From: a virus
Lineage: Duplodnaviria > Heunggongvirae > Uroviricota > Caudoviricetes
Strand: one strand, 5' to 3'
Virus record (IMG/VR): IMGVR_UViG_2698536672_000007
DNA length: 25,462 nt
Shown: positions 9,496 to 25,462 of the stretch, one piece after another
Layout: each line of letters begins with the position of its first letter
Numbering within the stretch: position 1 is the stretch's first letter
The notes under the pieces: model-generated
Database searches by the model: none
What the model was told of the DNA's origin: nothing
Seen by the model: the letters and a program-made list of their open reading frames with translations, nothing else
Translations under genes and position numbers: made by a program

Positions 9496-11262
9496 ATGAA
9501 CACCACACTGACACCCGCAGATCTCGATCCCCGTCGGCAGGCCATGCTGCTGTACTTTCAGGGATACCGCGTAGCCCGCATTGCTGAAATGCTGGGCGAG
9601 AAAGTTGCAACCGTTCACAGCTGGAAAAAACGCGACAAGTGGGGTGACTATGGGCCGCTGGATCAGATGCAGCTCACCACCGCCGCACGCTACTGCCAGC
9701 TCATTATGAAGGAGCACAAAGAAGGGAAAGATTTCAAAGAGATTGACCTGCTGGCGCGCCAGTCGGAGCGCCATGCGCGGATCGGCAAGTTTAACAATGG
9801 CGGCAACGAAGCCGACTTAAACCCTAACGTCGCCAACCGCAACAAAGGCCCGCGCCGTCAGCCGGAAAAGAACGTTTTCACCGATGAACAGATTGAGAAG
9901 CTGGAAGAAATCTTCCATTCCTCCATGTTCAACTACCAGCGCCACTGGTGGGAAGCCGGAAAAACCAACCGCATCCGCAACCTGCTGAAGTCACGCCAGA
10001 TCGGCGCGACCTTCTATTTTGCCCGTGAAGCCCTGATTGACGCCCTGCTAACCGGGCGTAACCAGATTTTCCTTTCCGCCAGCAAGGCTCAGGCCCACGT
10101 CTTTAAGCAGTACATCATCGACTTCGCCAAAGAAGTGGAGGTGGAGCTGAAAGGCGATCCGATGGTGCTTCCTAACGGGGCCACGCTGTACTTCCTCGGC
10201 ACCAATGCCCGCACGGCCCAGAGTTACCACGGCAACCTGTATCTGGATGAATATTTCTGGATACCGAAATTCCAAGAGCTGCGCAAAGTGGCTTCCGGTA
10301 TGGCTATTCACAAAAAATGGCGACAAACCTATTTTTCCACGCCATCCAGCCTGACACACAGTGCTTATCCGTTCTGGTCCGGTGCGCTGTTCAACCGAGG
10401 GCGCAACAAAGCCGATAAGGTGGACATCGACCTGTCCCACAGCAATCTGGCCCCCGGCCTGCTGTGCGCAGACGGGCAGTACCGCCAGATAGTCACTGTG
10501 GAAGATGCGGTGCGCGGCGGCTGTAACCTGTTCGACCTCGATCAGTTGCGCATGGAGTACAGCCCGGACGAATACCAGAACCTGCTGATGTGCGAGTTTG
10601 TGGACGATCTCGCGTCCGTGTTCCCGCTCAGCGAGCTGCAGGCGTGCATGGTGGACAGCTGGGAAGTCTGGACCGACTTTCATGCACTGGCTCTGCGCCC
10701 GTTTGGCTGGCGCGAAGTGTGGATCGGTTATGACCCGGCAAAAGGTACGCAAAACGGCGACAGCGCCGGATGCGTGGTGGTGGCACCGCCAGCCGTGCCG
10801 GGCGGTAAGTTCCGCATTCTTGAGCGTCACCAGTGGCGCGGGATGGACTTCCGCGCCCAGGCTGACGCCATCAAAAAACTGACCGAACAGTACAACGTGA
10901 CCTATATCGGTATCGACTCGACCGGCGTTGGTCACGGGGTTTATGAGAACGTGAAAGCGTTCTTTCCTGCCGTCCGGGAGTTTGTCTACAACCCCAACGT
11001 TAAAAACGCCCTGGTACTCAAGGCCTACGACATTATCAGCCACCGCCGTCTGGAGTTTGACGCCGGGCACACCGACATTGCGCAGTCATTCATGGCAATC
11101 CGTCGCGCCACCACCGCCAGTGGCAACCGCCCGACCTATGAAGCCAGCCGCAGCGAAGAAGCCAGCCACGCCGATCTGGCCTGGGCAACGATGCACGCAC
11201 TGTTTAACGAACCGCTGCAGGGCGAATCCGCCAATACCAGCAATATTGTGGAGATTTTTTGA
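9496..11262 (+). CDS. P: Terminase large (ATPase) subunit (P2 gpP-like)
   Basis: 588-aa ORF with ATG at 9496; size and position match P2 gpP; stop overlaps Q start (TGATG). Confidence 0.85.
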   Translation: MNTTLTPADLDPRRQAMLLYFQGYRVARIAEMLGEKVATVHSWKKRDKWGDYGPLDQMQLTTAARYCQLIMKEHKEGKDFKEIDLLARQSERHARIGKFNNGGNEADLNPNVANRNKGPRRQPEKNVFTDEQIEKLEEIFHSSMFNYQRHWWEAGKTNRIRNLLKSRQIGATFYFAREALIDALLTGRNQIFLSASKAQAHVFKQYIIDFAKEVEVELKGDPMVLPNGATLYFLGTNARTAQSYHGNLYLDEYFWIPKFQELRKVASGMAIHKKWRQTYFSTPSSLTHSAYPFWSGALFNRGRNKADKVDIDLSHSNLAPGLLCADGQYRQIVTVEDAVRGGCNLFDLDQLRMEYSPDEYQNLLMCEFVDDLASVFPLSELQACMVDSWEVWTDFHALALRPFGWREVWIGYDPAKGTQNGDSAGCVVVAPPAVPGGKFRILERHQWRGMDFRAQADAIKKLTEQYNVTYIGIDSTGVGHGVYENVKAFFPAVREFVYNPNVKNALVLKAYDIISHRRLEFDAGHTDIAQSFMAIRRATTASGNRPTYEASRSEEASHADLAWATMHALFNEPLQGESANTSNIVEIF

Positions 11263-12311
11263 TGGGAAAGAGTAAGAAGAACCGCGCTGCGGCGACGAAC
11301 CAGATTCAGCATAAAATCCAGACTTCAGCCGAAGCATTCAGCTTTGGCGATCCCATTCCAGTACTGGACCGCCGCGAACTGCTGGACTATGTGGAATGCG
11401 TACAGATGGACCGCTGGTATGAGCCGCCCGTCAGCTTTGACGGACTGGCACGAACCTTCCGCGCCGCCGTGCATCACAGTTCCCCGATTGCAGTAAAGTG
11501 CAACATTCTGACCAGTACCTATATCCCTCATCCGCTGCTCAGCCAACAGGCTTTTTCGCGTTTTGTGCAGGACTATCTGGTATTTGGTAACGCCTACCTG
11601 GAGAAACGCACGAACCGATTCGGTGAAGTTATAGCCCTTGAGCCTGCGCTGGCAAAATACACCCGACGCGGGTTAGACCTGGATACCTACTGGTTTGTGC
11701 AATACGGTATGACAACCCAGCCGTATCAGTTCACGAAAGGCAGCATTTTTCATCTGATGGAACCTGACATCAACCAGGAGATCTACGGCCTGCCAGGTTA
11801 TCTTTCTGCCATTCCGTCAGCCCTGCTCAACGAGTCCGCCACGCTGTTCCGCCGGAAGTATTATATTAACGGCAGTCATGCAGGCTTCATCATGTACATG
11901 ACCGATGCCGCGCAGAACCAGGAGGATGTGAACAACCTCCGCAATGCGATGAAAAGCGCCAAAGGCCCTGGCAACTTCCGCAACCTGTTTATGTACTCGC
12001 CTAACGGCAAAAAGGACGGGCTTCAGATCATCCCGTTGTCAGAAGTCGCGGCGAAGGATGAGTTTCTGAATATCAAGAACGTGAGCCGGGACGACATGAT
12101 GGCGGCACACCGTGTGCCGCCGCAAATGATGGGGATTATGCCAAGTAATGTTGGAGGATTTGGAGATGTAGAGAAGGCGAGTCGAGTGTTTGTTCGAAAT
12201 GAATTAATGCCTTTACAAAAACGATTACAGGAATTTAATGAATGGTTAGGAATTAATATTATCCATTTTGAAAAATATAACTTAATAAACGATGACCCAC
12301 AATCAACATAG
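11262..12311 (+). CDS. Q: Portal protein (P2 gpQ-like) with compositionally atypical 3' end
   Basis: ORF-track start 11259 is TTG; ATG at 11262 (MGKSKKNRAAATNQ...). Portal-like sequence follows P as in the P2 P-Q operon. The last ~55 codons (about 12150..12311) are markedly AT-rich. Confidence 0.85.
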   Translation: MGKSKKNRAAATNQIQHKIQTSAEAFSFGDPIPVLDRRELLDYVECVQMDRWYEPPVSFDGLARTFRAAVHHSSPIAVKCNILTSTYIPHPLLSQQAFSRFVQDYLVFGNAYLEKRTNRFGEVIALEPALAKYTRRGLDLDTYWFVQYGMTTQPYQFTKGSIFHLMEPDINQEIYGLPGYLSAIPSALLNESATLFRRKYYINGSHAGFIMYMTDAAQNQEDVNNLRNAMKSAKGPGNFRNLFMYSPNGKKDGLQIIPLSEVAAKDEFLNIKNVSRDDMMAAHRVPPQMMGIMPSNVGGFGDVEKASRVFVRNELMPLQKRLQEFNEWLGINIIHFEKYNLINDDPQST

Positions 12312-12331
12312 ATAAAGCTTAATAAAGGAGG

Positions 12332-12341
12332 GGGAACCCCT
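12332..12341. repeat. Target-site duplication, left copy (GGGAACCCCT)
   Basis: 10-bp direct repeat immediately flanking the IS186 ends; identical copy at 13681..13690. Confidence 0.75.
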
Positions 12342-13680
12342 CATAAGCGCTAACTTAAGGGTTGTGGTATTACGCCTGATATGATTTAACGTGCCGATGA
12401 ATTACTCTCACGATAACTGGTCAGCAATTCTGGCCCATATTGGTAAGCCCGAAGAACTGGATACTTCGGCACGTAATGCCGGGGCTCTAACCCGCCGCCG
12501 CGAAATTCGTGATGCTGCAACTCTGCTACGTCTGGGGCTGGCTTACGGCCCCGGGGGGATGTCATTACGTGAAGTCACTGCATGGGCTCAGCTCCATGAC
12601 GTTGCAACATTATCTGACGTGGCTCTCCTGAAGCGGCTGCGGAATGCCGCCGACTGGTTTGGCATACTTGCCGCACAAACACTTGCTGTACGCGCCGCAG
12701 TTACGGGTTGTACAAGCGGAAAGAGATTGCGTCTTGTCGATGGAACAGCAATCAGTGCGCCCGGGGGCGGCAGCGCTGAATGGCGACTACATATGGGATA
12801 TGATCCTCATACCTGTCAGTTCACTGATTTTGAGCTAACCGACAGCAGAGACGCTGAACGGCTGGACCGATTTGCGCAAACGGCAGACGAGATACGCATT
12901 GCTGACCGGGGATTCGGTTCGCGTCCCGAATGTATCCGCTCACTTGCTTTTGGAGAAGCTGATTATATCGTCCGGGTTCACTGGCGAGGATTGCGCTGGT
13001 TAACTGCAGAAGGAATGCGCTTTGACATGATGGGTTTTCTGCGCGGGCTGGATTGCGGTAAGAACGGTGAAACCACTGTAATGATAGGCAATTCAGGTAA
13101 TAAAAAAGCCGGAGCTCCCTTTCCGGCACGTCTCATTGCCGTATCACTTCCTCCCGAAAAAGCATTAATCAGTAAAACCCGACTGCTCAGCGAGAATCGT
13201 CGAAAAGGACGAGTAGTTCAGGCGGAAACGCTGGAAGCAGCGGGCCATGTGCTATTGCTAACATCATTACCGGAAGATGAATATTCAGCAGAGCAAGTGG
13301 CTGATTGTTACCGTCTGCGATGGCAAATTGAACTGGCTTTTAAGCGGCTCAAAAGTTTGCTGCACCTGGATGCTTTGCGTGCAAAGGAACCTGAACTCGC
13401 GAAAGCGTGGATATTTGCTAATCTACTCGCCGCATTTTTAATTGACGACATAATCCAGCCATCGCTGGATTTCCCCCCCAGAAGTGCCGGATCCGAAAAG
13501 AAGAACTAACTCGTTGTGGAGAATAACAAAAATGGTCATCTGGAGCTTACAGGTGGCCATTCGTGGGACAGTATCCCTGACAGCCTACAAAACGCAATTG
13601 AAGAACGCGAGGCATCGTCTTAACGAGGCACCGAGGCGTCGCATTCTTCAGATGGTTCAACCCTTAAGTTAGCGCTTATG
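12342..13680 (+). mobile_element. IS186 (IS4 family) insertion sequence, apparently complete
   Basis: 23-bp terminal inverted repeats CATAAGCGCTAACTTAAGGGTTG (12342..12364) and its reverse complement (13658..13680); a single 370-aa transposase ORF; flanked by a 10-bp duplication of a G-run/C-run palindrome, the known IS186 target preference. Confidence 0.85.
12397..13509 (+). CDS. insL: IS186 transposase (DDE, IS4 family)
   Basis: Protein MNYSHDNWSAILAHIGKPEELDTSARNAG... matches the E. coli IS186 transposase as I recall it; ORF-track start at 12391 is GTG, ATG at 12397 gives 370 aa. Confidence 0.9.
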   Translation: MNYSHDNWSAILAHIGKPEELDTSARNAGALTRRREIRDAATLLRLGLAYGPGGMSLREVTAWAQLHDVATLSDVALLKRLRNAADWFGILAAQTLAVRAAVTGCTSGKRLRLVDGTAISAPGGGSAEWRLHMGYDPHTCQFTDFELTDSRDAERLDRFAQTADEIRIADRGFGSRPECIRSLAFGEADYIVRVHWRGLRWLTAEGMRFDMMGFLRGLDCGKNGETTVMIGNSGNKKAGAPFPARLIAVSLPPEKALISKTRLLSENRRKGRVVQAETLEAAGHVLLLTSLPEDEYSAEQVADCYRLRWQIELAFKRLKSLLHLDALRAKEPELAKAWIFANLLAAFLIDDIIQPSLDFPPRSAGSEKKN

Positions 13681-13690
13681 GGGAACCCCT
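13681..13690. repeat. Target-site duplication, right copy (GGGAACCCCT)
   Basis: Identical to 12332..12341; abuts the right IS186 inverted repeat. Confidence 0.75.
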
Positions 13691-13698
13691 CCACATTG

Positions 13699-15891
13699 TT
13701 AAGTACGTAACATAATTTGCTGTTGAACTTGGATAGGCTGTAAGGTTTGATATTTCTGCCTAATTAGGTTATATAAATCCGGCATTTCTTCAGCAGATAA
13801 AGTCACAACAAGAACATATGGTAGTTCTTCTAACTCGTCAACATCAATAGGCATACCACAGTCTCTACCATAGTAGATAATATCAAAGCATGGGTTTGTC
13901 AGCTCATTCGGTTTAAATTTGTGTTCACTTCTTAACGTAGTCTCCCATTTATGTGCATCAACACGTTGCTCATTTTCATCTGCATAAACATTTTTTAGAT
14001 TAAAAAGAGGAAACGTTAACCCGGAACTATCTGAAACACCTTTTCTCATGGTTACTTCTAGACCGCTTCTTGTATAATTCAAAGGATGTTCCGCATCTAC
14101 AGGACTGGAAAAACAGAATGTCGCTCTTAAATTTACACATCCACGCATAGGTACATCTGGAAACGGAATAGGTGCTCGCATGTGTTGTGATGGTTTTAAA
14201 GTACCTTGATATATAACTTTAACTTCATCATCATCACAAAATATTACTTCACTAAGATCATGAGGAAATCGTCCCCAACCAACTTCAGCACGATTGATAT
14301 TATTGCTCTCCGCATGATGTATAAGCAGAGCTTTAGCCGTAAGTGGTGTAATGTTGTAATTTAGAGAAGCACTTAACGCGATTGCTTGCCTCAGGACTAA
14401 TGGAGCAGAAAAGCTAGTCCCCGCAGTGCGGGCAAGACCATTAACCATAGGGCTGTATACCTGGAATGGCTCATCAGAATGTCCTCCAAATGCAACTCCA
14501 TCAGGCTTCACAAAGCCAGGGCTTCGTCCAGGACCAATACAACTGTAAGAACATCTTTCCCAACTATCAGATAAAGAGGTTGCTGCACCTACTGACAGAC
14601 CATTAACTAAATCAGCAGGTGGTTGAATTCGATTTAACCTGGCAGGCAGCTGACCATCATTTCCAACCGCGACAGTACAAAGTGTTTCTCCTGATGCAAG
14701 TATCTCCTCAAGAGTTGAGGTCCACACATGCACGTCATCGTCATCAACAGGTAATCTAGGTCCTAAGCTCAGATTGATATAATCATATTTTTTTTGTTCT
14801 AATACACTTTTAATACGGATCAGAACGTCAAAAAGATCGACATCTGAGTTATTAACATTGGAATCCAGTACACGATAATGGTCAATATTACAATAAGGGA
14901 CACTTAATTTTTCCGTTTCAGAGCCAAGAACACCAAATAACACAGTAGAGGTGACATCCTGTCCATGAGAAAGAAGTTTTGCATTAGTACTAGCATTACC
15001 GTTGAAAGTGTACTCTGTTACCCAAGGATTGAAATCATCGATCCCCAATCCACCATCGAATATGGCAACCTTTATGTGTGGGTTTACCGCTCCTTCAGAT
15101 GGTAAACTAAGGTTAGATGTTTGAATCACAGAACGTGATATAACAGGCTCACTTAGCCTTAATTCAGGAAGTTCTCTCAAAGTCCTGAGAAATGAAAACT
15201 CTGCAACTTTTAAAGCTACATCTTTACTAGCCTTAATAGGCATAAAGGTTAGCCCCTTAACTTTTATACTTCTTGCCTTATCTATAACAGCACCATTTTG
15301 CGAAGCAAAAACTTCAAAACTATCGACAATAGAGGAACTTGTATCAGGAGTATGTAAGGCGACCTCAATACTCATAACTTCATTGCTATTAATCGTTTTT
15401 ACTTTATCTGAAACTTCCAGTATTGAAATATTTTCTAAGGTGACAAAATCATTTTGCTGCCCTTTCGTTAGGGTATCTTGATTTACAGAGTCTAAGAATG
15501 ATTGAAAACTTTCTTTTTTGCCAGAAACATAAATACACGCTGTAGTGTATTCCTCTTTTCGCCCTCTTTTTTTAATATCTTTTCTAGGTTTTACTTTTAC
15601 AGCCTTACTGCCTATGCTTTCTAGGGAAAATCGCTCAAAAAGACTTACTGGAAAATAACTTTTTGCTAAGAATGCCGGATGCAAAACAAATTTTGCTACA
15701 GCCTTACCTTCAGGCATTGCTAACAATGGAAGGGTATTAATTTCCTCAATCAACTCTTCCAGTTGAGCAGATATCACTGGTTTATTTTCTGAATAAGAGT
15801 AAGGTTTATTCTTTTCACCTCCACCTCTGTTAAGTTTAACAGGGTCAGTTAGTGTTTCACCATAGCCAAGAAGCATATTTTTATCATTCAT
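13699..15891 (-). CDS. Subtilisin-like serine protease (MEROPS S8-type catalytic core) with large N- and C-terminal extensions; candidate defence effector
   Basis: Catalytic motifs in D-H-S order: VAIFDGGLG (Asp), LSHGQDVTS (His), YINLSLGP (oxyanion Asn), GTSFSAPLV (Ser). No signal peptide. ORF-track first codon is TTG at 15906; I prefer ATG at 15891 (MNDKNMLLGYGE...), preceded by GAGGA with a 9-nt spacer and overlapping the upstream ATPase stop by 8 nt. Low GC. Confidence 0.75.
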   Translation of the reverse strand: MNDKNMLLGYGETLTDPVKLNRGGGEKNKPYSYSENKPVISAQLEELIEEINTLPLLAMPEGKAVAKFVLHPAFLAKSYFPVSLFERFSLESIGSKAVKVKPRKDIKKRGRKEEYTTACIYVSGKKESFQSFLDSVNQDTLTKGQQNDFVTLENISILEVSDKVKTINSNEVMSIEVALHTPDTSSSIVDSFEVFASQNGAVIDKARSIKVKGLTFMPIKASKDVALKVAEFSFLRTLRELPELRLSEPVISRSVIQTSNLSLPSEGAVNPHIKVAIFDGGLGIDDFNPWVTEYTFNGNASTNAKLLSHGQDVTSTVLFGVLGSETEKLSVPYCNIDHYRVLDSNVNNSDVDLFDVLIRIKSVLEQKKYDYINLSLGPRLPVDDDDVHVWTSTLEEILASGETLCTVAVGNDGQLPARLNRIQPPADLVNGLSVGAATSLSDSWERCSYSCIGPGRSPGFVKPDGVAFGGHSDEPFQVYSPMVNGLARTAGTSFSAPLVLRQAIALSASLNYNITPLTAKALLIHHAESNNINRAEVGWGRFPHDLSEVIFCDDDEVKVIYQGTLKPSQHMRAPIPFPDVPMRGCVNLRATFCFSSPVDAEHPLNYTRSGLEVTMRKGVSDSSGLTFPLFNLKNVYADENEQRVDAHKWETTLRSEHKFKPNELTNPCFDIIYYGRDCGMPIDVDELEELPYVLVVTLSAEEMPDLYNLIRQKYQTLQPIQVQQQIMLRT

Positions 15892-16966
15892 TGTCTTCAT
15901 CCTCAACCGTCAAAACCTTACGTACTTGTGACCTTGAAATCCCCAAATCTAAAGCGATTTTTCTTTGTGATACATTGTTGTTTGACATGTTTTTTATAAC
16001 ATCATCAAGTGACACGCCATCTAACAACTCATCAATTAAAGCTGAACTTAAAGGAATATCTTCTATAATGGCATTTCTTTTAGCTTGATTTATAGCTCTC
16101 TCAAGAACTGCATATGAAACTTTTTCGAGTTTTGTAGCAATATAGTACGATAAGCTATCTCCAATATTTTTAGAACAGAGATATCTTCTCATTAGGTCTT
16201 GTGTTGGATATTCAAAATCAATAACTCGATCGAATCTTCTCCATGCAGCAGGATCAAGCAGCTCCGCATGGTTAGTTGCTGCTATAAGAACAGACGTATT
16301 TGGCCATTCATCAATTGCTTGCAATAATACTGTAACTAATCTTTTTAGTTCTCCAACATCTGTTGCATCATCCCTTTTTTTAGCAATCGCATCAAATTCG
16401 TCAAGAAGCAGTACACAAGGGAATGACGAAGCATAATTGAGGACTGCCTTAATATTATTACCCGTTTTCCCCAAGTAGCTACTCATTACACTTGCGAGAT
16501 CTAATGTTAACAATGGCATATCGAGTTTAAAAGCGAGCCACTTTGCAGCCAAAGTCTTCCCCACACCGGGTGGTCCTCCCATAAGAAGAGATTTGGAGGG
16601 ATGCAACCCTTCTTTATAAAGGCGTTCTTTCATTTCCCACTCAGCCACAAATCGATTCAGTTGAACATCAGTTTTTGTTGGCCAAACAGGTTCAACATCA
16701 ATGACCACAGGATATGTTTCAACTAGCAGCTTTTGTCTTGTATCCGCATCAACAGGTGTTATTTTAGGAACAACTGGATTAGCCCTTTCGACTGCAATTG
16801 CGCCACCCGTATTAATAAGTAAATCTTCTAATTTACCCGCTAATTCAGGAGATTCTTTTTTTAGTTTTTTTGCCATAATCCGCAACCGCATGAGGAGACT
16901 TTCCCTCTTCCCCGTAAGAGCATCACTGACAACATCAATGAGCATTTCGTTTGTAACGTTTATCAT
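15884..16966 (-). CDS. AAA+ ATPase (classic AAA clade) with C-terminal helix-turn-helix; candidate defence sensor/regulator
   Basis: Walker A GGPPGVGKT, Walker B VLLLDEFD, sensor-1 LIAATN, second region of homology AAWRRFDRVI; C-terminal NVSQRKIALDLGISRSQVRKVL resembles a Fis/LuxR-type HTH. ATG at 16966; low GC. Confidence 0.75.
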   Translation of the reverse strand: MINVTNEMLIDVVSDALTGKRESLLMRLRIMAKKLKKESPELAGKLEDLLINTGGAIAVERANPVVPKITPVDADTRQKLLVETYPVVIDVEPVWPTKTDVQLNRFVAEWEMKERLYKEGLHPSKSLLMGGPPGVGKTLAAKWLAFKLDMPLLTLDLASVMSSYLGKTGNNIKAVLNYASSFPCVLLLDEFDAIAKKRDDATDVGELKRLVTVLLQAIDEWPNTSVLIAATNHAELLDPAAWRRFDRVIDFEYPTQDLMRRYLCSKNIGDSLSYYIATKLEKVSYAVLERAINQAKRNAIIEDIPLSSALIDELLDGVSLDDVIKNMSNNNVSQRKIALDLGISRSQVRKVLTVEDEDNE

Positions 16967-17156
16967 CTAACCACCCTTATGGCAAAACCGAACCACTTTT
17001 CAAACAATCATACACCAAAAAAACCTTTTTAAGGTAATTTTGAACCAAAAAAAATATTTTTAGCACCACAAATGCTCAAAACAAAACCAGTGACACTTTT
17101 GTATAACAACTAAAACCACCTATCGACAAAAATTTAGCTAAACCTTTTCAGCGCGC

Positions 17157-17176
17157 GCTCGTATCCCCGCCACGCC
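17157..17176. other. Candidate cohesive-end (cos) site of the P2/186 family
   Basis: Reverse complement reads GGCGTGGCGGGGATACGAGC; the first 13 nt match the G-rich core I recall for P2/186 cohesive ends (GGCG[A/T]GGCGGGGA...). Recalled, not searched. Confidence 0.4.
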
Positions 17177-17220
17177 TGCCCGCTTTATGTAGTGGTTTTC
17201 ATGCACCTGCATGATCTACG

Positions 17221-17246
17221 CAAAAGCCCGCCAGTTCTGGCGGGCC
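17221..17246 (-). terminator. Rho-independent terminator candidate for the minus-strand SOS operon
   Basis: Inverted repeat GCCCGCCA-GTTC-TGGCGGGC (8-bp GC-rich stem) followed on the minus strand by TTTTG. Confidence 0.5.
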
Positions 17247-17380
17247 TTAGCAAAAACGATCCTCAAACGATCATGCGATCTCATGCGGCATAGACATGCA
17301 CTACAGAGCTAACGCCTCGCAAGGGCTCGTTGTTCAACCTTGCTGACGCCAGAAACAAGTTCAGACGCCAGCAACGTTTC

Positions 17381-17614
17381 TTAATGCAGCCAGCTGTCGT
17401 CTTCCCACACCTTCTGCATAATTTTCATCACTTGTTTTCTTTCTTCGTCCAGTTGCAGTCCGGTCAGTTCCACACCGTTAGAGCTACCTTTGCGGATACG
17501 AATTACCGTTTTGGGATACAGGGGGCGCAGATTGCGGTAAAGCTCGGATTCAAGGGCGTCCAGTGTAGACTGGCTAATCTTTTGCTCTTTATCGATCATT
17601 ATTTCAATGCGCAT
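17381..17614 (-). CDS. DinI-like protein (SOS-regulated RecA modulator family)
   Basis: 77 aa from ATG 17614 (MRIEIMIDKEQKISQSTLDALESELYRNL...KIMQKVWEDDSWLH); recalls E. coli DinI in length, the MRIE start and the acidic W-containing C-terminus. SD GAGGTGA with a 5-nt spacer. ORF-track start 17686 is upstream in the same frame. Confidence 0.6.
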   Translation of the reverse strand: MRIEIMIDKEQKISQSTLDALESELYRNLRPLYPKTVIRIRKGSSNGVELTGLQLDEERKQVMKIMQKVWEDDSWLH

Positions 17615-17624
17615 AAAAGTCACC

Positions 17625-17813
17625 TCAGCTGATGACATCCATTGAGCGGTTGTATTCGTGGGTTCTGATTTTTGCCATGAGTTCATCTGTCAGTTCAGAA
17701 ACCCACTGCAGGGCCAGCCCCTTCTCTTCATCACTACACTCACTAGCCGCTACAAGCTTAAGAAAAAAATCAATGCGCTGGAGCTTCAAAGACTCCAAAA
17801 AATAGTCCTGCAT
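17625..17813 (-). CDS. Small protein in a LexA-controlled operon; possible Tum-like antirepressor N-terminal module
   Basis: 62-aa ORF with ATG at 17813 preceded by AGGAGG; a LexA box lies in its promoter region; position between A and cos corresponds to the 186 tum locus. Confidence 0.45.
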   Translation of the reverse strand: MQDYFLESLKLQRIDFFLKLVAASECSDEEKGLALQWVSELTDELMAKIRTHEYNRSMDVIS

Positions 17814-17853
17814 CTTTCCTCCTATGACACCAAAGCAATACTGTATACATAAC

Positions 17854-17873
17854 CACTGTTTATATTTACAGTA
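17854..17873 (-). promoter_or_regulatory. LexA (SOS) box
   Basis: cACTGTttatatttACAGta matches the CTGT-N8-ACAG consensus (TACTGTATATATATACAGTA) at 17 of 20 positions; about 40-60 bp upstream of the 62-aa ORF. Confidence 0.6.
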
Positions 17874-17965
17874 TATAATAATCTTACTGATGTAAAACGT
17901 TTTTTTACGTTCATCAGCCTGATATGCCTGGTATTATTAAGAGCACGAATTGTTAACCCGCGTAA

Positions 17966-20380
17966 TTAATACAGATTCCGCCACTTATCATCTTCCCGCA
18001 AACGCTGGTTCCGATAGAAGATACGCAGGCCTGCTCCTGACGGAATACTGCCACCGCGAAGGAGTAAATCGACCTCTTTCTCGCTGCCATCAAATCCTCT
18101 GGACTTCAGTTCATAGACGAGCTGCTGTCGCTGATCATCTGTAATTCGCTGTTTGTAGTCTTTACGCCGTTTCGGCTTAACCAGGCGTAACCTTGCTGCC
18201 AGTTCCCGGCGCTCTTTTTTGCTCATACTGTGCAGGTAATCGTGCAACTCCTTGTCATCCATGCGGGTAATGTCCGTTCTGGTGTCCCCATCAGCTGATT
18301 TATCTTTCTCCTGTTGGTTCAAATTTTCCGCAAGGGGACAGTTATTGCCACGAGTCCAAGGGGCGCAAGCGCCCTGGTCGGCTGCCGCCTCCTGAACGTC
18401 AACGGCTTTACGAACCATTTTCCACTTCACTGCATGAGTGCAGATCTTGCCCTCTGCAATGGGTGACCAGATGCCATAAATACGAATGCCGTGATCGCCA
18501 TAGGCGGTCGGCTCTTCGTTGATTTCATAAGCGGTTCTGATGAGGTGATATTTACGGGGAACCAGTACGCCGCCCTGCTTCATGATGTAGGTGGCAAAAC
18601 AACCAGCATCAGCAGCAGCCAGAATGGCATCAAGACGCGGGTTATCCAGTACCGGCGCACCTGCTTTTTTGTCACCCTGTTGCCTTGCCGCCTGACCAGC
18701 CAGCAAGCGAAGTTCACGGTAAGCCTGACGCCCCGGAATACCAAAGAAGCGGAATTGCTGAACACGATGCAGAGACGCCCAGGCATTCACGTATTCAGCG
18801 TTATCACGCAGAGATTTACCCGTTTCCTTGCTGATCTCGCCAGCCAGACCACGACCGTCAATGTTCTTACTGATATATTTCGCGATGTAGCTTGTCGGCG
18901 TTCCTTTGCGCGGGTTAATCAACTCAGACTTAAAGCGCGGCCCAGTGTTATTGCCCAGCTCCTCGCGGTCTTCACGGATGGCAAACTTACGCAGTAATGC
19001 AGTGATGGCACGGCGGTCTTTTTTGCGCATGAAACACAACAGGTGCCAGTGAACTGTGCCATCATGATGCGGCTCAGCCACCCGCACGCCATACCAGCGC
19101 AACCCGGCTTTGTGCATCGCCTTACGAAATGCAGCAAACATGCCGACCAGATAATCGCTGCTTTGTCTTACCGTCGCGTTTGTCCAGGTCGGGTTTGGTC
19201 TGCCGTTATTTAGCGTGGAATGGAAACGCGACGGACAGGTGATAGTGTAGAAAACGGCGCAGTCACCGCGCATTTCCGCGATAAGCTCCAGACCTTTAAC
19301 ACAGGCCATCATCTCATTGCGGCGATGCGCAGGGTTGCTGCTGCTGGCGTTTACCACATCCTCCATGTCCAGCGTGTCGCCGTCTTCGTTCACCAGTTCA
19401 TGAGAACGGAAAAACTCCAGCGACTTACGGCGCTGCTCACGTTTATGCATCACGGCTTCATAGCTGACATAAGGAGATGCTTTTTTGCTGACCAGGCAAA
19501 CAGCGCGCAACTGCTCTTCCCGCCATTCGCAACGCATCTTCCATAATTTCCGGTACCACCAGTCGGCGCACAACATACGCGCCAGCGAACCCGGAATGAG
19601 TTCATAGGGCACGGGTTTACGGCGGTTTCTTTTCCGACGGAGTTGCTCAAACGCAGGTGGGATGACATCCAGACGCAGGGTTTCCGCTGCCACCTTTTCC
19701 CATGTCTTGCGGATTTCTTCTGGCTTAACGTCATCGGTGGCATACAAATCACCACAAGCTGCATCAAGGCACATACTCATATGCGCAGCTACCAGGGTGG
19801 ACAGGCGTTTCACCTGATCCTGACTCATTTCAGGCAGGATCAGCAGGCCGTCCAGCCCTTCATGGCTTGCCATAAAGCGAAAAGATGCAGATAGCTGACT
19901 GTCGCGTACATGCTCCAGTCGTTCCAGACATGGCTTAATCGTCTCACGTAAATAGCGGGAATAAGCCTTTGGCCTGCCCAGGCTGCTGAAGTATTCAATA
20001 CGTTGCATCAGCGGCTTGCTGATATGGGAAGGCTGGGCGTTGACGTCCGCCAGAATGACCATGTCTGAATTAAAACGCTGCTGCTCATGCGCCAGCTTTG
20101 CCCGGCTAATGAGCTTATCCTGCTCCATTTCGCGCTGGACAGGATCACGTGATTCATTAAAGAAATAACGCTCCCAGACCTGATCACTCAGTGCCTCGCG
20201 GCGCAACTGTTCCTGCTCGTTATCGGCAGCGTACAGAGTGATCAGGTTTGAAAGCGTAGAAACCGGCGCAACTTCCGCCGGGTCCAGATAAGGGTTAATG
20301 GCCTTTTTCGGGCTGTTCCATGAGAATGCTGCGGCAGCCTCGTTAAAGCCGCAGCAGTTGTTCATATCGGCATGACTCAT
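17966..20380 (-). CDS. A: Replication initiation endonuclease (P2 gpA-like rolling-circle initiator)
   Basis: 804-aa ORF with ATG at 20380; contains [14 protein letters not shown], matching the conserved active-site tyrosine region of P2 gpA as I recall it. Confidence 0.85.
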
Positions 20381-22521: not shown

Positions 22522-23031
22522 TCACAGCAAACCGAATGAAGCACCGAGGCCAGTCACGGTATCAACTGCACTCGCCATCGCAGGATTAGCCTGTAAACGG
22601 GCCTGCAATGAAACAGCAGCCAGCGCCATCAGTCGTGTTACAGAGTTAATGCTGCTGATAGCATCACGACGACCGGCACTAGTTTTTACATCACCAGATA
22701 CCGCACCTGCTGCAACACGCCCGATCTCTGCAGTTGCGCTCATGACGTAATGCGGCAGTTTCTCTTTTGCTACCTCATTAATCGGTACACATGGCAGACA
22801 ATGAATCTGTGCCAGAAAACCATCTACCAACGTTGAATCTTCAGTCAGATCGGTAAGCAGCCAGATTTCTGGTGCGGTTAATAAATGAGGTTGAGCTGGG
22901 TTCAGCTTGTTCCGCAGAATCTGCACATTCATGCCCGCACGTTCTGCCAGTTGCACCAGATTGTGGCGCAGTGCGAATGCACGACAGGCTTCATCAAAAT
23001 GTGGATGTTTGGAAACTTGGTAATCAAACAT
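22522..23031 (-). CDS. cII: CII-like lysogeny establishment activator (phage 186 type)
   Basis: ATG at 23031 gives 169 aa starting [37 protein letters not shown]..., matching 186 CII as I recall it. ORF-track start 23040 is TTG. Confidence 0.8.
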
Positions 23032-23095
23032 GGTTTTCAACTCCGAACTTATCGCAAAATCGAACTCAGCGTCTTATTGCGAAAATAGACGTCTA

Positions 23096-23299
23096 TTAAG
23101 CAGACAAAGCATCAACAGTCAGAGCAGCCAGGTTAATCATTACCTTTTCACGTTTTTTGTCTTTACGAAGACGATGACGAGGTAGTCGGCCATCAGCCAA
23201 CATGTCGTTAATCGTATCAATAGAAAGGCCAGTCAGTTCGCTATAACGTTCGATTGTGACATGTGGTGTATTCAGAGTAATTGAAATGTTAGGTGTCAT
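23096..23299 (-). CDS. apl: Apl-like excisionase/lytic-switch repressor (HTH)
   Basis: 67-aa ORF with ATG at 23299; HTH-like [19 protein letters not shown]; first gene of the early operon, divergent from cI as in 186. Confidence 0.6.
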
Positions 23300-23388
23300 A
23301 AGGCAACATTCCTTCTAGATATGGCTTGTGGCGAGCCGTTGTTTGTCGTGATTAGTAGTGAAGGCTCCAAAAGAACACTTCTGGTTCA

Positions 23389-23417
23389 ACTTTAAGATCG
23401 CTTTTGGAATCTGTCAA
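23389..23417 (-). promoter_or_regulatory. Candidate lytic promoter pR (-35 TTGACA, 17-bp spacer, -10 TAAAGT) directed towards apl
   Basis: Minus strand reads TTGACA-N17-TAAAGT in the apl-cI intergenic region. Confidence 0.45.
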
Positions 23418-23444
23418 CGAATTTTGGATTTTTTTGGAGGACTT

Positions 23445-24014
23445 GTGGATTTCAATAGCGGCGGTAAGAAAGCCATAGAACGTTTAGTTGAAGCATATGG
23501 GTTCGGTACCCGTCAGGCTCTATGTGATCATTTAGGTGTTTCTAAGAGCACCATGGCAACGCGCTATATGCGTGATATTTTTCCAGCAGATTGGGTAATC
23601 CAGTGCGCCCTTGAAACGGGCACCTCGCTTAATTGGCTAACAACAGGGCATGGTTCAAAGCAAGCATCAGCAAATACAAATACTATAGAAGTAGAAAAAT
23701 ATTTATTGTCTGATGGAGCATTGCAGAAAGACGGTTTTTATATTTTTGATAAGGGATTTCTACCCTCTACGTTTAAAAAACCTTTTGTCATCACAGATAA
23801 CAATTCTGAATTTATTTGTGATAAAGAATTTGATGATATACGTGATGGTAAATGGGTAATAAGTATTGATGGCGAAATAACGATCCGTGACATTACTCGT
23901 TTACCCGGTGGAAGAATCTTCGTCGAGGGTGGAAACAGAGCCTTCGAATGCAAGATAGAAGACATTGAAATAATTGGTAAAATTATAAGTTTAACAGTCA
24001 AGTATGTTAAATAG
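23445..24014 (+). CDS. cI: CI-like immunity repressor (HTH N-terminal domain, AT-rich C-terminal domain)
   Basis: ORF-track start 23358 is GTG and would place pR inside the gene; GTG at 23445 preceded by GGAGG gives 189 aa, close to the ~192-aa 186 CI. HTH-like QALCDHLGVSKSTMATRYMRD. Start uncertain. Confidence 0.65.
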   Translation: MDFNSGGKKAIERLVEAYGFGTRQALCDHLGVSKSTMATRYMRDIFPADWVIQCALETGTSLNWLTTGHGSKQASANTNTIEVEKYLLSDGALQKDGFYIFDKGFLPSTFKKPFVITDNNSEFICDKEFDDIRDGKWVISIDGEITIRDITRLPGGRIFVEGGNRAFECKIEDIEIIGKIISLTVKYVK

Positions 24015-24029
24015 TACCGGGAGGAAACT

Positions 24030-24221
24030 ATGCTTGGTAAGGTATTTTTTGTGGTTTTGTCATGTTCTTTGTTATTAAACCCACTAACTACCTATGCTAG
24101 AAATTATCCCTGCTCAGGGAAAAAGGGAGGTGTTTCTCACTGTACCTCAGATGGCAAATTCGTTTGCAATGATGGAACTATTAGTAAATCCAAAAAAATC
24201 TGTACTAAAAACTCACGATAA
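24030..24221 (+). CDS. Small secreted cysteine-rich protein (possible lysogenic-conversion moron)
   Basis: 63 aa; ATG at 24030 preceded by GGGAGG with a 6-nt spacer; signal peptide [23 protein letters not shown] followed by a ~40-aa Lys-rich mature region with four Cys; AT-rich. Confidence 0.5.
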
Positions 24222-24409
24222 CTTTTGCTTTTATATCTGCGTCTAAAATAAAAATGAGCCGCAGGTTAACCGCAAAAGTTACATGCTCACATAGCAAAAA
24301 GAATAGCCAACTTAATTATGGCTTCAGTGAGATGTATGGTCGTAGGATTTCATACATTGACACTGGTTATACATACAGTGAAAATGCTCTCTACTGGAGG
24401 GCATTTTTT

Positions 24410-25462
24410 ATGGCAGTACGAAAACTCACCACTGGGAAATGGCTTTGCGAATGTTACCCCGCCGGACGAAGTGGGCGTCGTGTGCGTAAACAATTCGTCA
24501 CCAAAGGCGAAGCACTGGCTTTTGAGCGCCACACGATGGAAGAAACCGAAGCAAAGCCCTGGCTGGGTGAATCAGTGGATCGTCGAACACTGAAAGACGT
24601 GGTTGAGCTATGGTTCAAACTACATGGTAAATCTCTGACAGCTGGGCAGCATGTCTATGACAAATTGCTGTTGATGGTTGACGCTCTGGGCAATCCTCTT
24701 GCAACCGATCTCACCTCTAAAATGTTTGCCCACTATCGAGATAAACGCCTGACAGGCGAGATCTACTTCAGCGAGAAATGGAAGAAAGGAGCAAGCCCGG
24801 TCACCATTAACCTGGAGCAAAGCTATCTAAGTAGTGTTTTTAGCGAACTATCCCGTCTGGGCGAATGGTCGTATCCGAACCCACTGGAGAACATGCGAAA
24901 ATTCACCATCGCAGAAAAAGAGATGGCATGGCTTACCCATGAGCAGATTGTTGAATTGCTGGCTGATTGCAAACGTCAGGACCCAATTCTGGCACTGGTA
25001 GTTAAGATATGCTTAAGCACAGGCGCACGCTGGCGTGAAGCCGTAAATCTTACCCGCTCACAGGTGACCAAATACCGAATTACCTTTGTCAGAACGAAGG
25101 GGAAGAAAAACAGAAGCATCCCTATCAGTAAAGAGCTTTACGAAGAGATCATGGCGCTTGATGGGTTCAATTTCTTCACAGACTGCTATTTTCAATTTTT
25201 ATCCGTGATGGAAAAAACGTCTATCGTGCTCCCTCGCGGTCAACTCACACACGTTCTGCGCCATACGTTTGCGGCGCACTTCATGATGTCGGGTGGAAAC
25301 ATTCTGGCCTTACAAAAAATTCTCGGACACCACGATATAAAAATGACTATGCGTTACGCACATCTGGCACCGGATCATCTGGAAACGGCGCTCCGTTTCA
25401 ATCCTCTGGCAACGCTGCCAAGTGGCGACAAAGTGGCGGCAGCGGTTGGCATTACCCCGTAA
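24410..25462 (+). CDS. int: Tyrosine integrase (P2/186 family)
   Basis: ORF-track start 24254 is likely over-extended; ATG at 24410 (MAVRKLTTGKWLCECYPAG...) gives 350 aa. Catalytic region HVLRHTFAAH ... HHDIKMTMRYAHL with the tyrosine nucleophile. Stop coincides with the window end. Confidence 0.85.
   Translation: MAVRKLTTGKWLCECYPAGRSGRRVRKQFVTKGEALAFERHTMEETEAKPWLGESVDRRTLKDVVELWFKLHGKSLTAGQHVYDKLLLMVDALGNPLATDLTSKMFAHYRDKRLTGEIYFSEKWKKGASPVTINLEQSYLSSVFSELSRLGEWSYPNPLENMRKFTIAEKEMAWLTHEQIVELLADCKRQDPILALVVKICLSTGARWREAVNLTRSQVTKYRITFVRTKGKKNRSIPISKELYEEIMALDGFNFFTDCYFQFLSVMEKTSIVLPRGQLTHVLRHTFAAHFMMSGGNILALQKILGHHDIKMTMRYAHLAPDHLETALRFNPLATLPSGDKVAAAVGITP

Follow-up and report, generated by a model that had tools for sequence, protein, structure and literature searches.

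How a block of DNA rich in adenine and thymine (AT-rich) came to lie between the portal gene Q and the cohesive-end site cos of a P2-like prophage, and whether it brought a part of the portal gene with it, are the questions raised by the Caudoviricetes record IMGVR_UViG_2698536672_000007, a stretch of 25,462 nucleotides (nt) that was analysed as a whole and is called the window below. The original prediction, made from the letters alone, described positions 12150-17156 as one compositional island that had arrived by recombination inside Q and had supplied the portal protein with a replacement C-terminus. Our analysis indicates that this interval is very probably a cos-adjacent defence hotspot holding the system IetAS, in a cassette that has been exchanged, together with the 3' end of Q (the Q tail), by homologous recombination. 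Judging from its gene content, the window is a P2/186-like (Peduoviridae) prophage. It encodes the head and packaging set O, N, M, P and Q as well as gpA, the cohesive end of its cos is 19 nt long, it has Pfam matches to Phage_GPO, Phage_cap_P2, Phage_term_smal, Phage_portal and Phage_GPA, and its early region (CI, CII/CP76, Fil) is 186-like. The portal Q was 94% identical to P2-like portals, and the same reading frame is annotated in RefSeq relatives. The coordinates of the features are collected in Table 1.

Base composition was computed in 300-nt windows and for each feature separately. The content of guanine plus cytosine (GC) was 0.52-0.59 in the body of Q, 0.37 at 12150-12449, 0.48-0.57 at 12450-13500, 0.33-0.47 at 13650-17100 and 0.50 from 17100 on. 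The values per feature were 0.560 for N, 0.572 for P, 0.531 for the Q body and 0.530 for gpA, against 0.321 for the Q tail (12150-12311), 0.381 for ietS, 0.384 for ietA and 0.315 for the spacer between ietA and cos, the cargo as a whole being at 38%. The sliding-window check that had been proposed thus found Q and the interval not to be uniform in GC, and both this and the per-feature values bear out the AT-richness that had been estimated by hand against about 53% in structural genes. The original prediction had also placed the beginning of the shift in the last ~55 codons of Q, in agreement with the GC content at third codon positions (GC3), which was 0.52-0.76 in all 25-codon bins through codon 300, then 0.24 in codons 301-325 and 0.20 in codons 326-350, with the step at about nt 12159; the C-terminal peptide of Q was quoted correctly as well. 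The interval is indeed AT-rich but it is not a single island, since it consists of two AT-rich pieces separated by an insertion sequence (IS), IS186/IS421, of ordinary GC (0.512). With the IS included, the entire interval averages 0.415, and without it 0.377, as compared to 0.530 in the remaining window. Among 162-nt windows of the backbone, 0.65% equalled the Q tail in AT-richness, and they were located in the CI/int region and in the spacer between DinI and A. An 18-nt near-repeat (83%; ATATAACTTAATAAACGA / ATAAAGCTTAATAAAGGA at 12275-12292 and 12312-12329) spans the Q stop codon and may be due to chance, given the AT-rich sequence.

The two genes of the cargo are, from their sequence, a two-gene IetAS system. 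ietA and ietS are adjacent and co-oriented, the ATPase gene preceding the protease gene with an overlap of 8 nt, which is the gene order of IetAS. The PADLOC profile of IetA was matched with E=6.7e-84 (covering 7-355 of 360 aa) and that of IetS with E=1.4e-48 (covering 37-622 of 735 aa), and the Pfam domains AAA and Peptidase_S8 were found in IetA and IetS with 5.4e-30 and 4.4e-17, respectively. Motif matching located Walker A (GPPGVGKT) and Walker B (LLLDEFD) in IetA, and motif matching only placed subtilase-type Asp, His and Ser motifs at approximately residues 276, 309 and 491 of IetS. IetA is 100% identical in amino acids to WP_001513123 and IetS 99.7% identical to WP_001513122, both from RefSeq carriers. 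The pair resembles the IetAS family in having an AAA+ ATPase gene that overlaps a downstream S8 protease gene, strong profile matches and intact motifs, but differs from the ietHAS variant, which has a helicase whereas the system here has none. The IetAS system (Gao et al., 2020) was originally described as a toxin-antitoxin pair for the stability of the plasmid pTiC58, in which the protease is the toxin and the ATPase the antitoxin. The literature on IetAS describes anti-phage defence that requires the protease activity, with an abortive-infection phenotype set off by a phage protein. By analogy, in a lysogen, IetA would restrain IetS until a protein of an infecting phage triggers the protease, aborting the infection. 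A promoter scan 5' of ietA returned 7 sites as compared to 11.6 expected from shuffled sequences, none of them in the AT-rich leader (16967-17150).

Did the Q tail and the cargo move as one unit? In a survey of 5426 complete Escherichia coli genomes, the Q tail (at least 94.6% identity) and ietAS (at least 99.6%) were found in the same 11 genomes, and the best Q tail outside these carriers was 78% identical in DNA and 81% in protein. A relative with the same AT-rich end of Q and no cargo, the case that the original prediction had named as speaking against it, was looked for and not found in these genomes or in phage records. The linkage is not simple clonality, for 58 of the 60 closest Q bodies belonged to non-carriers (95.7-96.8%) and only 2 to the 11 carriers. 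Maps of single-nucleotide polymorphisms (SNPs) in nine carriers relative to the window revealed a central block with differences of 0.09-0.36%, as compared to 3.5-4.3% in P and the body of Q and 2.3-3.5% on the far side of cos. When the block was tested against its flanks in these nine carriers, the Fisher values ranged from 1e-16 to 1e-34, the block edges having been set post hoc as the last mismatch, which flatters the tests. To the left of the block, the last mismatch was at 11465, 12089, 12107, 12170 or 12221, five edges that are all within Q; to its right, mismatches resumed at 17079-17355 or, in one strain, at 18136. The non-carrier strain 1105 was nearly identical to the window at 11865-12091 and then diverged sharply. 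The SNP patterns of the carriers are signatures of repeated homologous exchange, with crossovers in the 3' part of Q and around cos.

The 11/11 match between tail and cargo in E. coli and a block that starts within Q support a recombination junction inside the portal gene. The boundary that had been drawn there on compositional grounds is of another age, however. Relatives with other cargo share the AT-rich sequence 12140-12175 and diverge only downstream, and since they have the first ~35 nt of the AT-rich stretch in common with the window, the step at about 12150 predates the IetAS exchange.

The composition of the Q tail could also have changed in place, with no import, either because of a relaxed C-terminus combined with AT bias or because AT-richness was selected near the cargo, for instance for H-NS silencing or for termination signals. 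The tail is the part of Q that diverges fastest (mean pairwise identity 0.61 versus 0.84 for the body), AT-rich tails adjoin many unrelated cargos and, across species, the tail sequence is not tied to the identity of the cargo, all of which would fit with such a change. We nevertheless consider this explanation very unlikely, given that GC3 steps from 0.60 to 0.24 between two adjacent 25-codon bins with the motif NEL.PLQ.R..E.N.W....I.F..Y.L kept, that the tails of the carriers are almost mismatch-free on Q bodies that are 4% or more apart, and that the best non-carrier tail is as distant as mentioned above. From the abrupt shift at synonymous sites and the preserved protein motif, we infer that the tail was probably imported from a low-GC P2-like lineage. 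When a donor with the same tail was searched for, the best match in 50,697 phage records had 81% amino acid identity over 43 residues (Klebsiella, Yersinia and Salmonella phages).

The exchange of cassettes by homologous recombination would proceed as follows. Two P2-like genomes that meet would swap cassettes by means of two homology arms, the conserved sequence of Q on one side and the cos/DinI/A flank on the other. The SNP patterns place one crossover in the conserved last third of Q and the second at cos or shortly beyond it. The last ~50 codons of Q are on the cargo side of most crossovers, and the Q tails of different cassettes (60-78% identity) would be too diverged to recombine, so that they would hitch-hike with the cargo and have its AT-richness in common. 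Each swap would yield a chimeric and functional portal in which the C-terminal helix motif is preserved. We looked for direct repeats, att-like sites or an integrase bounding the cargo, and the window contained only the inverted repeats of the IS and short matches at chance level. The lack of a dedicated insertion element points to a cassette exchanged between related prophages by homologous recombination.

The presence of an IS186/IS421 copy within the island raises the alternative that the cargo was delivered by a mobile element, either by IS186 transposition or by an integrase/att event at the end of Q. The element itself is a typical IS186/IS421, a family defined by a DDE transposase, a size of ~1.34 kb, 23-bp inverted repeats and a G/C-rich target duplication of 10-11 bp. 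It has a transposase gene at 12391-13509 (DDE_Tnp_1), it is bounded over its 1339 bp by perfect 23-bp terminal inverted repeats, and a 10-bp G/C-rich target duplication (GGGAACCCCT) is present at 12332-12341 and 13681-13690. It is ~99-100% identical to copies in E. coli annotated as IS421, which RefSeq names "IS4-like element IS421 family transposase". The duplication flanks the IS alone, which is single-copy, and around the cargo neither a further repeat nor an integrase or an att-like direct repeat was found. The cargo was present without the IS in 8 of the 11 E. coli carriers, including ChlosBP-23-1 and EC102, and these matches were ~1349 bp shorter. Such empty-site alleles, together with a duplication around the IS only, indicate that the IS arrived after the cargo and was not its vehicle. 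The empty site is a hairpin, GGAGGGG-gaa-CCCCTCC, which is the IS186 target, and IS186/IS421 entered this terminator hairpin after the cassette, leaving Q and ietS intact. Transposable or IS elements were, moreover, almost absent from these P2-like defence hotspots in a published survey. We thus regard delivery by a mobile element as extremely unlikely.

The IS186/IS421 copy differs from known ones by its location inside a prophage defence hotspot and by the occurrence of both orientations at one site across strains. Three ietAS prophages (window 12342-13680, L004 4084-5422 and L099 2584-3922) have it at an identical target and with an identical 10-bp duplication. In strains Ecol_AZ147 and Eco_23-3571, its orientation is opposite to that in the window, the IS sequence being 1339/1339 identical. 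Opposite orientations correspond either to independent insertions at the hotspot hairpin or to an inversion between the 23-bp ends.

On its right, the variable interval adjoins cos, which reads GGCGTGGCGGGGATACGAG on the minus strand at 17163-17181 and aligns with P2 cosL and with the relatives. The putative cos of the original prediction is therefore real and is of the 186 type; it lies beyond 3 mismatches from the P2 sequence, for which a search of the window at up to 3 mismatches gave no match. Homology to relatives with other cargo resumes exactly at 17151. Only ~12 nt on the Q side of the cohesive end (17151-17162) are conserved among relatives with different cargo, and each cassette must supply further cosL-side sequence if cos function needs it. 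The gene order Q, cargo, cos, DinI and A, with Q ending at 12311 and A starting at 20380, is that of the hotspot position and puts the cargo at the very left of the linear virion map. It also agrees with the original proposal, in which the cargo occupies the interval between Q and cos, on the cosL side, and old/tin of P2 the A side. P2 itself has no cargo in the slot, the distance from cosL to the Q stop being 186 bp with 62% GC, and the GC content of its Q tail is 0.51.

Different cargo in the same slot of relatives, another suggested check, was readily found. Phage 813R9 has a Hypoth_Ymh protein in the slot, E. coli 1105 an ATP-dependent nuclease, and Klebsiella phages have AIPR/Abi/retron-type genes there. 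When 36 loci, 32 of them species-level, were compared in 630 pairs, cargo was common to 5 pairs and 622 pairs shared less than 10% of their cargo. In E. coli strain 1105 (L086 8069-10619), a 111-aa open reading frame (ORF) between cos and DinI accompanies the nuclease between Q and cos. Cargo thus lies to the left and to the right of cos in this strain, so that either end of the linear genome can carry accessory genes in this clade.

We then compared the portal tails across species in 35 species-representative P2-like prophages with cargo in the slot. GC3 was 0.46 in the last 50 codons of Q versus 0.70 in the body (Wilcoxon 1.7e-10), a drop of more than 0.2 was observed in 23 of the 35 loci, and tail GC3 correlated with cargo GC (Spearman 0.62, p=7e-5). 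The best-fitting change points were mostly 12-22, 32-38 or 46-53 codons before the end of Q. One locus, L094, has a mosaic tail in which an AT-rich patch (GC3 0.27, Q codons -60 to -46) is embedded in a GC-normal tail (GC3 0.67-0.80), and this patch looks like a small remnant of an earlier exchange. A lasting association between tail and cargo across species was considered and dropped, since cargo homology fails to predict tail similarity.

Several points weigh against the exchange of cassette and Q tail as a unit, in addition to the post hoc block edges. The tails of cargo-free loci and of P2 are as GC-rich as the body of Q, but this control is small (4 loci, three of them with an identical tail, plus P2). 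Pairs that share cargo had a tail identity of 0.63 versus 0.61, a difference that was not significant with 5 pairs. IetAS homologues with 84% amino acid identity are located behind GC-normal Q tails in L008 and L093-L095, where the left junction is after the Q stop; L098 has the same IetAS-homologue cargo, and no Q was detected at that locus. The donor search gave no phage whose Q is AT-rich throughout. Finally, several ietAS-carrying prophages are visibly degraded (L089 1-3004 of STEC308, L099 447-1504 and L003 1-349), with a frameshifted terminase gene P and partial tail-sheath or gpD genes next to O. ietAS is still 99.6-99.9% identical in these decayed prophages, which suggests that the defence genes may be kept after the death of the phage.

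The replacement portal C-terminus that had been proposed to come with the island holds within the E. coli carriers, but the tail is not intrinsic to IetAS. The linkage between tail and cargo is, on these comparisons, recent and breakable rather than permanent. The perfect linkage in E. coli could also be read as selected co-adaptation, in which the defence system would need a matching portal C-terminus that avoids self-triggering or self-cleavage. Some defence systems sense portal or terminase proteins. This reading appears very unlikely to us, however, because the IetAS homologues mentioned above coexist with ordinary Q tails, the association is absent across species and physical linkage at 40 bp suffices for the pattern. 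Homologous exchange of the cassette together with the Q tail thus remains our preferred explanation.

Portal fragments next to defence-like genes were also found outside P2-like phages. In a collection of 5.8 billion proteins, the matches of the Q tail were mostly short portal fragments, many of them orphan C-terminal pieces. Some portal fragments that were considered as cassette relics were rejected as assembly frameshifts or decayed prophages (P0031, P0084). Blocks comprising a truncated Q, AT-rich defence-like cargo and a P2-type cos were present in three non-P2-like elements (Table 1). The first is a P4-like satellite with the gene set int, psu, delta, sid, alpA and alpha primase; its block contains a frameshifted Q (aa 34-342), an AT-rich pair of DUF3226 and AAA_15/21 genes, a P2-type cos and psu, and RefSeq annotates a portal pseudogene in it in E. 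coli MB06172. In the second, the AlpA/Bro/primase/SSB element, a P2-like prophage matches the 1.2-kb block at 86% identity, with homology that stops ~25 nt past cos. The third is a lambdoid prophage. All three blocks end at cos on the right, and on the left they begin at varying points within Q.

It is conceivable, though we put the idea forward tentatively and at somewhat less than even chances, that the exchange unit at cos-adjacent hotspots of P2 and P4 is a left-terminal piece of linear DNA made of cosL, the cargo and a variable length of the 3' end of Q. Between P2-like phages, such a piece would resolve by homologous recombination in Q, producing chimeric portals with AT-rich tails, and its capture by other elements would leave a portal relic. 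The three blocks described above fit with such a capture. The sequence of the satellite block shows what appears to be some P2-to-P4 cassette traffic.

Outside the variable interval, the window has the layout summarized in Table 1. A second AT-rich zone is located at 23000-24500 (GC 0.38-0.41 in 500-nt windows, with a minimum of 0.28 in 162-nt windows), spanning the gene of the CI repressor (23358-24014) and the first part of the integrase gene, and is likely a further mosaic module boundary.

Table 1. Features of the window and portal-containing blocks in other elements (positions are those of the window unless a locus is named).
Feature	Position	Strand	Basis or remark
Baseplate J, small terminase M, capsid N, scaffold O	late genes	-	
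Terminase P	9496-11262	+	
Portal gene Q, 349-350 aa	start 11259/11262, end 12311	+	Pfam Phage_portal; backbone part up to ~12150
AT-rich Q 3' end (last ~50 codons)	12150..12311	+	GC 0.321, linkage to ietAS in E. coli
Terminator hairpin between convergent Q and ietS	12328..12342		terminator scan, empty-site sequence in L003
IS186/IS421 (IS4 family), 1339 bp	12342..13680	+	Pfam DDE_Tnp_1, inverted repeats, duplication
ietS, subtilisin-like S8 protease, 730 aa	13699..15891	-	PADLOC, Pfam Peptidase_S8; presumed toxin/effector
ietA, AAA+ ATPase, 360 aa	15884..16966	-	PADLOC, Pfam AAA; presumed antitoxin/regulator
AT-rich cargo-specific leader 5' of ietA	16967..17150		31.5% GC; right end of variable region
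Conserved cos flank (CAGCGCGCGCT) and 19-nt 186-type cohesive end	17151..17181	-	sequence, alignment with P2 cosL
DinI-like gene	17381-17614	-	Pfam DinI, RefSeq annotation of relatives
Small ORF	17625-17813	-	conserved right-hand backbone (17381-20380)
Replication gene A	17966-20380	-	Pfam Phage_GPA, RefSeq annotation of relatives
Dam methylase, 186-type CII, Fil	right of gene A	-	
CI, then integrase	CI 23358-24014	+	
P4-like satellite at ssrA	L106 5246-8100 = L112 7137-10070 (E. coli MB06172)		
AlpA/Bro/primase/SSB element	L100 5880-7063		Q aa 251-342, DUF4145 gene and cos
Lambdoid prophage	L110 5750-7275		Q aa 196-349, 223-aa gene and P2-type cos

The hotspot and the IetAS family have been published before, and so has the presence of these two proteins in this slot. 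The cos-adjacent defence hotspot between gpA and gpQ was described by Rousset et al. (2022; PMC9122126), who only speculated on the mechanism of swapping, and their supplementary table lists WP_001513123 and WP_001513122, for instance in NZ_CP025849, as AAA/HTH_50 and Peptidase_S8 proteins labelled ietAS. Moura de Sousa et al. (2026; PMC13586616) concluded that defence genes hardly ever pass between P2 and P4, and they observed little linkage of defence with core genes at the resolution of whole genes. The locus studied here is similar to the P2-like hotspot of these two studies in its position, flanking genes, adjacency to cos and hypervariable AT-rich cargo. The published hotspot is bounded by whole core genes, whereas the variable unit here starts in gpQ, the last ~50 codons of which are linked to the cargo. 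Among the classical non-essential loci of P2 for lysogenic conversion, the tin/old "TO region" and Z/fun likewise are horizontally acquired AT-rich exclusion genes near cos in a P2-type genome, but tin/old are located at the right end, on the A side, which here comprises only the conserved DinI-like gene and the small ORF, the cargo being on the cosL/Q side. What is modestly new, and was not found in searchable papers, is an exchanged unit that extends into Q and leaves remnants of the portal gene in other elements.

For the biology of P2-like phages, these results mean that linkage between defence and core genes exists at this locus, restricted to the final ~50 codons of Q, and that exchange tracts can be read from SNPs, with five left edges within Q and right edges around cos. 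The fast swapping of cassettes, the mechanism of which was left open when the hotspots were described, becomes testable with existing genomes and simple phage crosses. For annotation, where a defence gene adjoins a portal "C-terminal fragment", the fragment should be taken as the scar of a cassette and not as noise. If the exchange unit is indeed a left-terminal piece of linear DNA, this would provide a footprint at the sequence level for the mechanism on which Rousset et al. speculated, and it would document the traffic of cassettes from P2 to P4.

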